From a virus: 64,000 nt of DNA. Below the pieces are notes generated by a model. The model saw only the letters and a program-made list of their open reading frames with translations, searched no databases and had not been told where the DNA came from. Below, in pieces: positions 60,357 through 63,260 of this stretch. The number at the start of each line of letters is the position of its first letter. The stretch's first letter is position 1. The stretch lies in the UHGV virus genome UHGV-1682877, one strand, 5' to 3'. The translations under genes were made by a program, and so were the position numbers.

Positions 60357-60689
60357 TTAATAGCTTCCCCTATTTTCTTTTATACGTTTAAATAATATAT
60401 TCGCTTTTTGTACTACTTCTTCTCCATATGTTGCTAATAAATCAGCTAATAATTCTTCTTGTTCAAGGGATAAATTTATATCATAGCTAAACATTGCAGC
60501 ATGAGTTATTTCATGGCACAAAACTTTTTGCAAATAAGTATTATTTAAAGTTTTATCTATATAAATGGTTTTAGTTTCATCATCACAAACTCCAATAGTA
60601 TAAGTTCCATCACTTCTCATTAAATTATAATTAGAAGAAGAAACAAATTCTATTGTCCATGTTTCACCATTTACATTTACTGTATACAT
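60357..60689 (-). CDS. HExxH zinc metallopeptidase-like small protein
   Basis: LCHEITHAAMF. Confidence 0.5.
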   Translation of the reverse strand: MYTVNVNGETWTIEFVSSSNYNLMRSDGTYTIGVCDDETKTIYIDKTLNNTYLQKVLCHEITHAAMFSYDINLSLEQEELLADLLATYGEEVVQKANILFKRIKENRGSY

Positions 60690-61243
60690 TATTGTATTTT
60701 TGCGGAAATAGAATTAATGCGTTGCTGTATCATTTGTTTCTCTTCAGGAGATGCACCTTCTATCATTTCCACTATATCACTAGCTAATTCCTGCATATAG
60801 TGTTCTAACTCTTTTAGCTGAGTGGGCTTATCTTTGTGCATTTCTTTTGATTCCATATAAGTTTTACGACTTATAGGACTACGACCTTCACGCTTATCCC
60901 GCATTTTTTCTAAAGGCTTATAAGGCATCATGTACATATCATCATAATATACATAATCATCCTCATCTTTTATATGTTTCTTCATTTTAGGATCAATCGT
61001 ATAATACATTCTAGGAGTAGGATAATACATTCTACCATGATGTTTATCCATATCTCTATTATTAGTATTATAATCAGACTCTTCCATAGCTTTTCTAATA
61101 GTATGATAATACATTGCTTCTTCACAATCTTTTATCATATCTACTGCTTCACCTAATTCGTGAGCATCAACAGTATCAAGATGGGCCAATTCCCCTTCAA
61201 CACAAGCCATTAAACAATTTCTCATATTTTTTAGTCTTTCCAT
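60689..61243 (-). CDS. hypothetical Tyr/Met/Lys-rich protein
   Basis: ORF; biased composition. Confidence 0.4.
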   Translation of the reverse strand: MERLKNMRNCLMACVEGELAHLDTVDAHELGEAVDMIKDCEEAMYYHTIRKAMEESDYNTNNRDMDKHHGRMYYPTPRMYYTIDPKMKKHIKDEDDYVYYDDMYMMPYKPLEKMRDKREGRSPISRKTYMESKEMHKDKPTQLKELEHYMQELASDIVEMIEGASPEEKQMIQQRINSISAKIQ

Positions 61244-61257
61244 ACTGTACCTCCAAA

Positions 61258-61680
61258 TTAAGCAACACGTTCAACAATTAGATTAGCATTTTGAACGCTA
61301 ACTGTTTGAGTGCTAATATTTTTTACACTAATCTGAGAACAACAACCTTTAGGAACATCTAAAAAGATACTACTAAACACGTTATTGTACTGATCGACTG
61401 CGGCTGGAGTAGTTGTCATAGTCGTTGTAGCAACAGGTTCGCCGTTAATAGCAATAGCTAAAGAAATAGCGCCAGCAGTCCCACCAGTAGGAACAGCAAT
61501 ATTAGCGCCAAAAGTTACTCTAAAACGAGCGCGGCACTGAGTGCTAGCCAGGCCGCGCAAAGTAACTAATCCACTACCATTACGATGAACCATTGAACAA
61601 CTTCCACCAACTACTGTATCAGTCATAAGAACATTTTGATTGGCTGCAACTGATTGAGCAGCATTGGCTGTAATTTCCAT
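61258..61680 (-). CDS. BclA C-terminal domain-like (C1q/TNF-fold-like) protein, putative
   Basis: resembles exosporium BclA-type C-terminal domains from memory (ANIAVPTGGTAGAISLAIAINGEPV...VQNANLIVERVA). Confidence 0.35.
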   Translation of the reverse strand: MEITANAAQSVAANQNVLMTDTVVGGSCSMVHRNGSGLVTLRGLASTQCRARFRVTFGANIAVPTGGTAGAISLAIAINGEPVATTTMTTTPAAVDQYNNVFSSIFLDVPKGCCSQISVKNISTQTVSVQNANLIVERVA

Positions 61681-61704
61681 AAATTAGTTATCCTCCAAAT
61701 TTAA

Positions 61705-62541
61705 TTAATAAATGCTAGAGCAGCAGCTATTGCAGGAATTTGCGGAACCGCAACTGCAATAAGGGTTAGCCACTACATAAGCGGGAATAGGAGCTTTCTG
61801 ACCAAGTTCGCTAACCAGATAAGCATTTTGAGCTTGCTGAGAAGCCGCAAATTTCAAAGTCTGATTCTCGGACTGCAAGGAAGCAATCTTATCCTGAGTT
61901 AAGAAATCTAAGATTTCACGAGTGCTATCTTGAACAGCTCTACGAGTATCGCAAGACTGAGTAGCTAAGTTATAGTTCAAGTCGCTAAAACCGCGTTCAA
62001 TAGCACGTCCGGTCTCACAGCAGCAAGACTGTAACTGTGTACCCAAAGCGGTTAAACCAGCAGTAACACCATTAAAACCATTATTCATACCAAGAGTAAT
62101 AGTATTAGTATTTTGATTCATGTCAGAAGTGATACCATTAGCCAACTGAGCAGTCTGATAACCAAGAGTACAAATAGCATTGTCGGTACTAGCAAAACCT
62201 TGCTGAGTATTCAAAGCTTGATTGCCGAAACCAGTTAAAAGACTATTATTAAGAGCATAGAAACCATCACATAGACCATTCTGAATACCACGAACAGAGT
62301 TCTCTAAGCCATTCATATCAAAGCCATATGCAATTTCTTCACGGGTAGTTGTACCTCCCATTGGTGACACGCTACGACCATAGCCGTTTTCACCCCAGCC
62401 CCATCCATTCATCATGAATAAGAACAGAAGGATGACCCACCAGCCATTGCCTCCACCAAAACCATCATCATTACAACGATTACCGCCGGTAGCTGCGGCG
62501 ATATCAGCTAAAGAATAGCTAGAATTTGCAGTATTAAACAT
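61705..62541 (-). CDS. hypothetical membrane protein with Cys-rich C-terminus
   Basis: TM segment WWVILLFLFMMNGWGW; C-terminal CSCGSANSCNSCCSS. Confidence 0.4.
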   Translation of the reverse strand: MFNTANSSYSLADIAAATGGNRCNDDGFGGGNGWWVILLFLFMMNGWGWGENGYGRSVSPMGGTTTREEIAYGFDMNGLENSVRGIQNGLCDGFYALNNSLLTGFGNQALNTQQGFASTDNAICTLGYQTAQLANGITSDMNQNTNTITLGMNNGFNGVTAGLTALGTQLQSCCCETGRAIERGFSDLNYNLATQSCDTRRAVQDSTREILDFLTQDKIASLQSENQTLKFAASQQAQNAYLVSELGQKAPIPAYVVANPYCSCGSANSCNSCCSSIY

Positions 62542-62568
62542 TTTTATTCTCCTTTTGTTTTCATAAAA

Positions 62569-62811
62569 TTATTTAATGCCTAACATTTGCTTAAAAGCAT
62601 TAAATTCTTTGTCGAAATCTATGCCTTGACTTTTAGCATAATTTCTAACAATTTGTTCAATATCCGCAGTCTTATTATCTTTAACTAATTGTAATAAGTT
62701 AGCACCCATAGGATTATTTTGCGCTTGCTGCTCTAAAATATTCATCACTAATTGTTGAGGATTTTTACCTCCTTTAATCATTGATAAAATTTGCATTGGA
62801 TTTGCTTGCAT
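62569..62811 (-). CDS. hypothetical small protein
   Basis: ORF track. Confidence 0.4.
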   Translation of the reverse strand: MQANPMQILSMIKGGKNPQQLVMNILEQQAQNNPMGANLLQLVKDNKTADIEQIVRNYAKSQGIDFDKEFNAFKQMLGIK

Positions 62812-62822
62812 TATTTTCCTCC

Positions 62823-63260
62823 TTAAAATTTATATGTAGGCGCATTTTGCGTTTCTTCTGGAGCAGGTTCAGGAGGAGGAACTTGCGCCACAGGTGATTC
62901 TTGCTGATTATTTAACAAATTAAAGTTCATTTGAATTTTATTCAAAGCATTATTAAATTCTTCTCTTGTTACATAAGTAGAATTATTAGAAGTTGGGCCT
63001 TCTTTTAACTCATACATATTTAATGTAGCAGTACCATCCATGTTAATTTGCTTTGTATAAATTTTCTTATTTGCTAAATCTGGAAAATAAAAAACAGAAC
63101 CATCAAAATCAATACTTGTAGCTCTTGCTTCTTCTAATGAAGAAACCATACGTCCTTTCAACCCCGGAGGCGCCATTATCTGCGGAGTTGGATTGATATA
63201 TGTTTGTGGCTGACGCATTGTTTGCTGTGGGTAATAATTATTGTTATTGTATGGATACAT
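62823..63260 (-). CDS. hypothetical protein with Pro/Gln-rich termini
   Basis: ORF track. Confidence 0.4.
   Translation of the reverse strand: MYPYNNNNYYPQQTMRQPQTYINPTPQIMAPPGLKGRMVSSLEEARATSIDFDGSVFYFPDLANKKIYTKQINMDGTATLNMYELKEGPTSNNSTYVTREEFNNALNKIQMNFNLLNNQQESPVAQVPPPEPAPEETQNAPTYKF

Follow-up and report, generated by a model that had tools for sequence, protein, structure and literature searches.

A six-gene cassette of gut phages encoding a putative membrane-anchored stalk protein and a predicted TNF/C1q-fold protein

Close to the end of a 64,000-nucleotide stretch of viral DNA (UHGV virus genome UHGV-1682877; "the window" refers to this whole stretch), six minus-strand open reading frames (ORFs) of the window's ORF list fill positions 60357-63260. 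What might such a compact block of genes do for a phage? The original prediction, which was made from the sequence alone, had seen in it a module of spore-coat/exosporium-like proteins that may decorate virions or act as morons on the host spore surface. We found that the block belongs to a cassette of gut phages. Its core proteins are p278, a putative membrane-anchored stalk protein, and p140, which is predicted to adopt a TNF/C1q-like fold, and the reading that we tentatively favour places both at the host membrane around lysis. In the order of transcription, the six genes are:

62823-63260, minus strand: p145, an ORF of 145 amino acids and the first gene of the operon, not described individually in the original prediction
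62569-62811, minus strand: p80, an ORF of 80 amino acids, likewise not described individually
61705-62541, minus strand: p278, an ORF of 278 amino acids with a putative membrane anchor and stalk
61258-61680, minus strand: p140, an ORF of 140 amino acids with a TNF/C1q/BclA-like jelly-roll in the structural model
60689-61243, minus strand: p184, an ORF of 184 amino acids with helical ends and a low-complexity middle rich in Tyr, Met, Asp, Lys and Arg
60357-60689, minus strand: p110, an ORF of 110 amino acids, a putative minimal HExxH zinc metallopeptidase

The four proteins that had been described individually lie where the original prediction placed them, and what it said of their motif, composition and hydrophobic segment holds.

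The jelly-roll protein, the stalk protein and their partners

The original prediction had compared p140 with the C1q/TNF-like C-terminal domains (CTD) of BclA-type proteins. When we built an AlphaFold2 monomer model of p140 from 27 homologues, we obtained a confident all-beta structure (predicted local distance difference test score (pLDDT) 82.6, predicted template-modelling score 0.77) with the suggested jelly-roll. A predicted structure without such a jelly-roll would have counted against the original prediction on its own terms, and the fold claim has withstood this test. A Foldseek search of this model against the PDB put exosporium proteins nearest: F-BclA-CTD (9H38, E 3e-6, template-modelling score ~0.7) and ExsFA (7R1M/9H3D) took the top ranks, BclA-CTD was also among the closest solved relatives, and TNF ligands and chlamydial Pgp3 followed. 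Among predicted viral structures, the best fold matches were stand-alone gut-phage proteins of 130-142 amino acids, one of which had already been auto-named 'BclA protein'. Further fold matches comprised the tail fibres of cyanophages A-1(L) and A4, PRD1 P5, the Sf6 needle knob, lactococcal and TM4 receptor-binding proteins, T4-type fibritin whiskers and the TNF-like lectins BC2L-C and Photorhabdus lectin (PLL).

At the level of sequence, p140 matched no Pfam family at E <= 1, including BclA_C (PF18573), TNF and C1q. NCBIfam and PADLOC gave no match, the NCBIfam exosporium-leader models gave nothing, and a PDB profile search found neither BclA nor ExsFA and returned no significant match. Identity in the structural alignments was 12-17% to BclA domains and 11-14% to ExsFA. 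The 140 residues of p140 contain no repeats and no collagen stalk, and among 800 family representatives from an exhaustive HMMER search, the best 150 were all stand-alone proteins (71-196 amino acids), none of them fused to a stalk. Of the comparison with BclA, the fold is thus retained as far as the model goes, whereas sequence membership, collagen stalk and exosporium leader are not. The model suggests that p140 resembles BclA in fold only, not as a family member, and that it represents a new sequence family of known fold; its architecture is nearer to ExsFA than to BclA. Among PHROG profiles, p140 matched phrog_20016 (E 2.5e-53), a family without function annotation. It is the best conserved gene of the operon, with 83% identity between the window and its relatives L003-L006 as compared with 44-76% for the other genes, and identities of 75-85% are found across many phages.

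The second core protein, p278, matched the unannotated PHROG family phrog_16490 (E 9.4e-39). Its only hydrophobic segment is WWVILLFLFMM and its C-terminus reads ...CSCGSANSCNSCCSSIY, so that the membrane protein of the original prediction is recovered with one hydrophobic segment and a Cys-rich tail. From the alignment it can be seen that a conserved N-terminal peptide (MFN..YSLADIAAATG) is followed by the Trp-flanked hydrophobic helix and then by a Gly/Trp-rich linker. The stalk is a single predicted helix of ~170 residues, rich in N/Q/T/G/A/S and poor in charge, and further features are, in this order, an invariant CCC, a heptad-like stretch (KIxxLxxENQxLKFAASQQAQN), the motif PxPAYVVxNP and the Cys-rich tail. 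The Trp-flanked helix is conserved in 118 homologues; CCC was present in 114 of these 118 proteins, which have a median of 11 Cys. Taken together, these sequence features suggest a bitopic membrane protein with a helical stalk. The AlphaFold model of the p278 monomer shows helices at residues 34-44 and 79-246 and, with a pLDDT of 58.6, was too poor for fold searching; such a low value would be expected for an oligomeric coiled coil that is modelled as a monomer. A PDB sequence/profile search gave nothing significant. Its best hit, the heptad repeat of a coronavirus spike (E 0.03), is a compositional match, which probably explains the labels 'spike glycoprotein' and 'viral fiber' in crass-like records. 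A double-glycine leader with a C39-type peptidase was considered for the N-terminus and rejected, since the Gly-Gly pair is not conserved.

The partners are smaller. The N-terminus of p145 is rich in Pro, Gln, Tyr and Asn, and the protein further contains a conserved beta domain of small size (GRxVSS..ID FDGS..F.PD...IYTK) and a short helix with YVTREEF; it matched phrog_21718 (E 4.6e-8), 65 of the 86 related loci have a homologue in this position, and Pfam and PDB sequence searches gave nothing. p80 is a small Gln/Asn-rich helical protein, and homologues with 47-61% identity are found at the same position in large phages. When p80 was compared by hhalign with its positional counterpart in small temperate phages, a probability of 88% was obtained, and the corresponding value for p184, the counterpart of which has an Arg/Gly/Tyr/Ser-rich middle, was 90%; control pairs stayed below 2%. 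With 14 Tyr (7.6%) and 19 Met (10.3%), p184 is indeed the Tyr/Met-rich protein that had been described. Homologues with 29-52% identity were present in 17 loci, and Pfam and PDB searches gave nothing. The low-complexity proteins of other cassettes carry a middle rich in Arg/Gly/Tyr/Ser/Asp/Glu (L002 6438-6878, L091 5911-6288, L092 4192-4935, L088 4699-4932). This region resembles the RGG/Tyr-rich regions of condensate-forming eukaryotic proteins, and p184 is a Tyr/Met/Asp/Lys-rich variant of it.

The last gene encodes p110, which carries the motif HEITH; H59, E60 and H63 are invariant in 21 homologues, as are E78 and E79 further downstream. p110 matched phrog_1233 (E 2.4e-18), its Pfam scores were just under the cut-offs of DUF6782 (26.6 vs 27 bits) and Peptidase_M78 (21.5 vs 22), and its SprT-like score was 18.1 (cut-off 25.6). 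Some of its ~976 homologues (104-113 amino acids) have precomputed matches to M78 (PF06114), SprT (PF10263) or DUF2268 (PF10026). The invariant residues argue for a conserved minimal zincin, in agreement with the HExxH metallopeptidase of the original prediction. No signal peptides were detected on the partner proteins of p278 in the operon, and for five of the six operon proteins Pfam, NCBIfam and PADLOC gave no significant match.

Distribution of the cassette and its genomic setting

p140 and p278 each have homologues in more than 7,700 clusters at 90% identity, none with a name or a Pfam domain, and many of these homologues are encoded on contigs of 40-60 kb or 130-175 kb. Together with the strong PHROG matches, these numbers indicate that the operon genes are not chance ORFs. 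The gene of p278 is directly followed by that of p140 in 80 of the 86 related loci, all-against-all clustering gave a five-gene core in 56-83 loci, and relatives of all six window proteins were found in 13-17 of the 86, in large phages. Four contigs that come from relatives of the window phage carry these six genes as a lone island on the opposite strand. The closest relatives of this phage are phage contigs that had been binned into metagenome-assembled genomes (MAGs) with inconsistent labels.

Small temperate phages carry a parallel cassette, the components of which were present in 38-83 loci. Its gene order is a Cys/His/Asp protein, a p145-like protein, a Gln-rich protein of ~70 amino acids, a p278-like protein, a p140-like protein, a protein with helical ends and an Arg/Gly/Tyr-rich middle, and a protein of ~113 amino acids. 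The peptidase-like gene of the large phages encodes the HExxH protein and stands at the 3' end; that of the small phages encodes the unrelated Cys/His/Asp protein and stands at the 5' end, which we read as a non-homologous replacement. For the Cys/His/Asp protein we found no Pfam model and no significant PDB sequence or profile match. Its pattern is NPNP..GDCxVRA...GH...D.WDS (e.g. L002 3337-3717, where it opens the small temperate-phage cassette). The protein is also encoded by Tsamsa-like Bacillus phages, in which it bears the label 'putative peptidase', by Geobacillus phage GBK2 and by the Lak megaphages that infect Prevotella. In one close relative (L005 8938-9984, ENA scaffold VALL22-1...scaffold_105), an ORF of 348 amino acids is inserted exactly between the p278 and p140 genes, which are otherwise spaced by ~20-200 bp. 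It gave only a faint match to DUF723 (PF05265) and is possibly a homing endonuclease. A Pfam search with the positional counterparts from Dulem virus 33 and cr116_1 returned no match. All retrieved loci came from animal-gut samples, a restriction that may stem from the choice of samples sequenced so far.

Upstream of the cassette in temperate Firmicutes phages, Amidase_2, Amidase_3, GH25, CHAP, Phage_lysozyme2 and holin domains dominate the adjoining 3 kb. Dulem virus 33 and Butyrivibrio phage Ceridwen are temperate examples in which the cassette follows the lysis genes, and the prophage of cultured Vescimonas fastidiosa MM35 has the order holin, amidase, cassette, host genes. An unusual endolysin architecture was seen in the block upstream of the cassette in L003-L006 (e.g. 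L003 1196-2771): a putative lysin combines Peptidase_C1 with Cu_amine_oxidN1 and adjoins a SocA_Panacea-domain gene and a Phage_holin_1 gene. The p140 family was demonstrated for Firmicutes phages only; many carriers are Clostridia phages, including phages of C. perfringens, and the p278-p140 pair is also present in a phage of Butyrivibrio fibrisolvens. An extension of p140 to Bacteroidota by way of Bacteroidales-labelled MAGs was dropped, since the p278 proteins of these MAGs are of the Butyrivibrio-phage type and the contigs are probably mis-binned phage DNA.

The p278 family reaches beyond Firmicutes. We found it in many Crassvirales, in Bacteroides phage C3_41T2LP, in a 62-kb circular element of B. 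thetaiotaomicron BFG-119, in a Bacteroides uniformis element and in two viruses assigned to Methanomassiliicoccales, and the hhalign probability for p278 and the protein of the crass-like cr116_1 was 99.8%. Outside Firmicutes phages, p278 is followed by a beta-rich protein of ~136-180 amino acids, a beta-plus-coiled-coil protein of ~165-188 amino acids, an Arg/Tyr/Asp/Glu-rich low-complexity protein and often an HExxH protein. In one locus with Methanomassiliicoccales given as host (L090, Caudoviricetes sp. vir215, 2152-4759), the p278 homologue lacks the PAYVV motif and the Cys-rich tail at its C-terminus and lies just downstream of a tail protein gene and a reverse transcriptase gene (phrog_1423), which is possibly part of a diversity-generating retroelement.

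In the Suoliviridae cr1_1 and cr109_1, the p278 homologue is located between holin/LysB-like genes and a lysin of the L,D-transpeptidase type, and cr116_1 has the cassette inserted after the lysin and before the scaffold/capsid genes. crAss001, which belongs to the same subfamily as cr116_1, has nothing at this junction, and the cassette is therefore accessory. In cr109_1 (L093 3174-8272), the holin gene, the LysB-like gene, the p278 homologue and the genes around them carry in-frame stops under the standard code. Such recoding has been reported as typical of late structural and lysis genes in some Crassvirales (review, PMC10136315). Because the cassette genes of cr109_1 carry these recoded stops, the cassette is probably expressed late.

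The borders of the block in the window are defined by the following features:

63413-63817, minus strand: holin-like gene (134 amino acids), a separate transcription unit outside the operon
63376-63410, minus strand: intrinsic terminator (15-bp stem, 7 GC pairs, T-run) that ends the holin-like gene and forms the upstream operon boundary
63261-63375, minus strand: leader with a putative promoter, holding a 9-bp inverted repeat
60337-60378, both strands: bidirectional terminator (16-18-bp stem, T-runs on either strand) that forms the downstream operon boundary

Every gene of the block is preceded by a GGAGG-type ribosome-binding site or its start overlaps the preceding stop codon, as the start of p110 overlaps the stop of p184. 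Because of these signals and the terminators at both ends, 60357-63260 is one operon. The replication genes on the plus strand converge on the operon and end at 60345. The perfect 9-bp inverted repeat TTGTCAAAA-N13-TTTTGACAA at 63341-63371 (minus strand), between the upstream terminator and p145, has an operator-like look, and the repeat search found it once only in the window. A loose AAAATTTTT-G/T-GACA motif is common to the upstream regions of related phages; a loose AAAATTTTTGGACA motif was noticed in related phages at the place that matches the inverted repeat. No good match to the sigma-70 consensus was found in the region upstream of the operon.

According to the original prediction, two genes of the block use GC-richer codons, as fibre genes do, which was taken as a hint at high expression. 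The GC content is indeed higher for p278 (0.42) and p140 (0.41) than for the window (0.305). For these two genes, GC1 and GC2 are ~0.46-0.51, and GC3 is 0.33 for p278 and 0.21 for p140 as compared with 0.11-0.19 in most genes. Since the bulk of the excess falls on codon positions 1 and 2, the high GC mostly reflects amino-acid composition, and little speaks for high expression. The fibre genes that were meant are probably two plus-strand genes. One of them (16539-17750, 403 amino acids) is the most GC-rich gene of the window (GC 0.427, GC2 0.50); its Thr/Ala/Gly/Ser-rich product looks like a fibre or surface protein. The other (14388-15620, 410 amino acids) has repeated NGG/GGxF motifs that suggest a beta-helix. 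Neither gave a PHROG match, and neither has been identified as a fibre gene.

On its plus strand, the window carries the replication arm of a large phage, the relatives of which measure ~130-175 kb. This arm codes for Pol III alpha, NrdD, RecJ, a primase, DnaB, a Dda-like helicase, topoisomerase II and DNA and RNA ligases, and PhoH, dUTPase and RuvC are also encoded in the window. When 60000-64000 was compared with GenBank phages by megablast, no match was obtained. The product of 63413-63817 matched phrog_13712 'holin' (E 1.6e-32). It combines one N-terminal transmembrane segment with a long helix, an outline like that of ATP synthase subunit b (NCBIfam E 0.001), and a homologous gene lies directly upstream of the cassette in five related loci. 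Since no endolysin gene was identified among the window ORFs examined, the lysin of this phage is probably encoded beyond position 64000.

Possible functions of the cassette

No function has been assigned to the cassette in Pfam, PHROGs, NCBIfam, PADLOC, the PDB sequences or the literature that we searched, and our literature search found no paper describing it. The reading that we favour, as a tentative proposal that may well turn out otherwise, is a late-expressed complex of a membrane-anchored stalk and a TNF-like head, with low-complexity partners and a small peptidase, that acts at the host membrane around lysis. In such a complex, p278 would form a trimeric coiled coil anchored in the cytoplasmic membrane, and a p140 trimer would dock on one of the conserved terminal peptides of p278, which would give a stalk-plus-head assembly of two polypeptides. 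This docking is modelled on ExsF and its trimeric stalk proteins: the clefts of the ExsF trimer accommodate the leader peptides of BclA and F-Anchor, and the BclA leader is trimmed proteolytically (PMC12357932). The low-complexity proteins may scaffold the assembly and the peptidase may mature one of its components. Because the cassette sits beside lysis genes, the complex would most likely work together with the holin/endolysin cassette when infection ends, at the membrane of the host, and lysis timing, membrane disruption and progeny release are candidate roles.

Several observations weigh against this proposal. Five to seven genes would be a large lysis accessory, and searches of Pfam, PHROGs and NCBIfam revealed no likeness of any component to a known lysis protein. 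The interaction of p278 with p140 is inferred by analogy, the structures having been predicted as monomers. Since the partners of p278 lack signal peptides, an outward-facing stalk could meet them only after lysis, and the positive-inside rule gives no orientation for p278, both flanks of its hydrophobic segment being Gly-rich and slightly acidic. The genomic position is not uniform either. In relatives of the window phage, the island lies between a variable block of fibre-like, lysin and holin genes and a block of dUTPase, RuvC, NrdD and Pol III; in Clostridium perfringens phage CPD1 and Bacteroides phage C3_41T2LP the cassette is found among early/recombination genes; and the position after the lysin in temperate phages is also the classical moron site. 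The occurrence of the p278 family in viruses of monoderm, diderm and archaeal hosts excludes a wall- or outer-membrane-specific mechanism. Finally, the neighbours of p278 in Crassvirales were considered as distant homologues of p140, p145 and p184 and rejected (hhalign <=1%); they are of a similar kind but count as positional analogues only.

A bolder version of the release proposal, which we regard as possible but rather doubtful, sees in the cassette an undescribed late membrane machine that is independent of the type of host envelope and occurs in gut viruses of Firmicutes, of Bacteroidota including Crassvirales and possibly of methanogenic archaea. Its parts, namely a membrane-anchored stalk rich in Cys, a cap with the TNF/C1q fold, low-complexity scaffolds rich in Arg and Tyr and a peptidase for maturation, would together control or execute the last membrane step of release, or would show a TNF-like ligand on lysis debris.

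As the chief alternative, the cassette would build an accessory fibre or decoration of the virion on capsid or tail, with p278 as trimeric shaft, p140 as knob and the other genes as assembly factors, which would stick the particles to gut material. We consider it unlikely, although a good deal of the evidence can be read in this way. TNF-like knobs are common at fibre tips and are among the fold matches of p140, so that the structure would resemble the adenovirus, PRD1 P5 and Sf6 knobs and BclA; the N/Q/T/G/A/S-rich, charge-poor stalk of p278 has the composition of phage fibres; and the origin of all retrieved loci from animal-gut samples suits such a role. The late-gene recoding in cr109_1, the position among tail and head genes in cr109_1 and cr116_1 and a presence/absence pattern among close relatives that is typical of decoration proteins point in the same direction. 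However, the Trp-flanked hydrophobic helix of the 118 homologues is expected of a membrane protein and not of a fibre base, the genes of temperate Firmicutes phages follow the lysin outside the structural block, and the conservation of p140 (75-85% identity across many phages) is unusual for a receptor-binding tip. Moreover, crAss001 virions assemble without the cassette, and the literature search found no virion proteomics.

Alternatively, the cassette might be a module for superinfection exclusion or anti-defence, in which a p278/p140 complex in the membrane blocks DNA entry of other phages or neutralises a membrane-associated defence. The patchy distribution of an accessory, self-contained operon with its own terminators and a membrane protein would be in line with this, as would its location next to the integrase at prophage ends and its presence in phages of very different hosts, which is seen for many counter-defence genes. 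We nevertheless rate it as improbable. Exclusion genes usually occur singly, are small and are transcribed from the lysogeny region; the cassette, by contrast, runs in the same direction as the late and lysis genes, and the recoded stops in cr109_1 argue for late expression. The strong conservation of p140 is unlike that of arms-race genes, and PADLOC gave no significant match (best E 0.004, ~15 bits).

Even less probable is a role of p140 as a released effector: a TNF/C1q-fold trimer, free or on membrane fragments that bear p278, would be freed by lysis and bind a glycan, another bacterium or an animal receptor in the manner of BC2L-C, PLL and Pgp3. The two lectins and the secreted Pgp3 are among the fold matches of p140, the lack of a signal peptide and the adjacency to lysis genes fit release by lysis, p140 is strongly conserved and the retrieved loci are all gut-associated. 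The last point may reflect database bias, no ligand-binding site or receptor can be inferred, and the effector would leave the membrane anchor, the low-complexity partners and the peptidase unexplained.

Least credible of all is the spore role that the original prediction had raised. Worked out further, it would mean that the mother cell of a sporulating host makes the products of these spore-coat/exosporium-like morons and incorporates them into the surface of the spore; p140 would behave like ExsFA/BclA-CTD and the Cys/Tyr-rich proteins like a cross-linked coat, so that altered spores change the fitness of phage or lysogen. The best structural matches of p140 are exosporium proteins, Cys and Tyr are frequent in cassette proteins, Clostridia phages make up many of the carriers, those of C. 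perfringens among them, and in prophages the cassette stands at the end, where morons are found. Assembly of exosporium proteins takes place in the cytoplasm of the mother cell and requires no signal peptide, and the absence of signal peptides in the cassette fits this too. This reading is unlikely because the p278 family thrives in phages of non-sporulating hosts: it is abundant in Crassvirales and Bacteroides elements and extends to viruses assigned to methanogenic archaea, hosts that never sporulate, and the p278-p140 pair occurs in a phage of Butyrivibrio fibrisolvens, a species described as non-sporulating. In addition, BclA_C sequence membership, collagen repeats and an exosporium leader are lacking and the cassette is co-oriented with lytic late genes. 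As for the moron idea itself, the prophage-end position agrees with it and the position inside crass-like lysis cassettes does not.

p278 and p140 are among the commoner unannotated gene pairs of gut phages, and the only name that any source gives them is 'hypothetical protein'. The cassette travels as a unit between temperate Clostridia phages of ~40 kb, phages of 130-175 kb and Crassvirales, usually beside lysis genes. If the proposed role in release is true, it would add a component to the holin-endolysin picture in gut phages, the lysis and persistence of which are poorly understood; if the cassette encodes instead a fibre or a TNF/C1q-like ligand that is set free, it is relevant to the interaction of gut phages with their environment. 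Carriers that can be cultivated (C3_41T2LP, the CPD1 group of C. perfringens phages, Ceridwen, the V. fastidiosa MM35 prophage and the B. thetaiotaomicron BFG-119 element) make the question testable.

Comparison with known systems

Among lysis systems, two-component spanins (lambda Rz/Rz1, P2 LysB/LysC) invite comparison. In outline, p278 recalls them by a predicted N-terminal anchor, a long predicted coiled coil, conserved Cys and a Pro-rich C-terminal region, and it is encoded in or next to lysis cassettes; a place in the lysis cassette combined with a diderm host is seen in the Suoliviridae cr1_1 and cr109_1 but not in Firmicutes phages, the relatives of the window phage included. However, the hosts of most p278 carriers are monoderm Firmicutes, in which there is no outer membrane that could be fused, the cassette comprises five to seven genes, and no ORF with a lipobox signal peptide was found beside p278 among the ORFs inspected in the window and the crass-like loci. 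We detected no homology to spanin families, and the sole PHROG spanin match was that of p145 (E 0.077). With minimal zincins (M78 ImmA/IrrE, SprT-like, DUF6782), p110 shares the invariant HExxH and the downstream Glu-Glu, but it has only 110 amino acids and no partner helix-turn-helix repressor as in ImmA/ImmR systems.

For p140, the comparison leads to stalk-and-head proteins. The C-terminal domain of BclA and F-BclA (PF18573; 1WCK, 9H38) has the same TNF/C1q-like jelly-roll as the p140 model, but it is the head of a collagen-like glycoprotein, whereas p140 stands alone and does not match BclA_C. ExsFA/BxpB (ExsF) of the Bacillus cereus group (7R1M, 9H3D) is, like p140, a stand-alone TNF-like protein of ~150 amino acids; it differs by its low identity to p140 (11-14%, no profile match), and p140 is phage-borne and the p278 stalk family reaches non-sporulating hosts. 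The stalks of the ExsFA system are collagen, whereas that of p278 is a predicted coiled coil with a membrane anchor and without an exosporium leader motif. The knobs of PRD1 P5, the Sf6 needle and the cyanophage A-1(L)/A4 tail fibre sit covalently on their shafts, are encoded in structural modules and have no transmembrane segment, unlike the cassette with its p278 anchor. The globular domains of TNF ligands and C1q (EDA-A1, 4-1BBL, C1q, cerebellin, adiponectin) have no sequence similarity to p140, the trimeric state of which is assumed from the fold, and here stalk and head are separate polypeptides. Conservatively, the cassette can be regarded as a variant of the stalk-plus-C1q/TNF-head theme that differs by its split into two polypeptides and by its membrane anchor.

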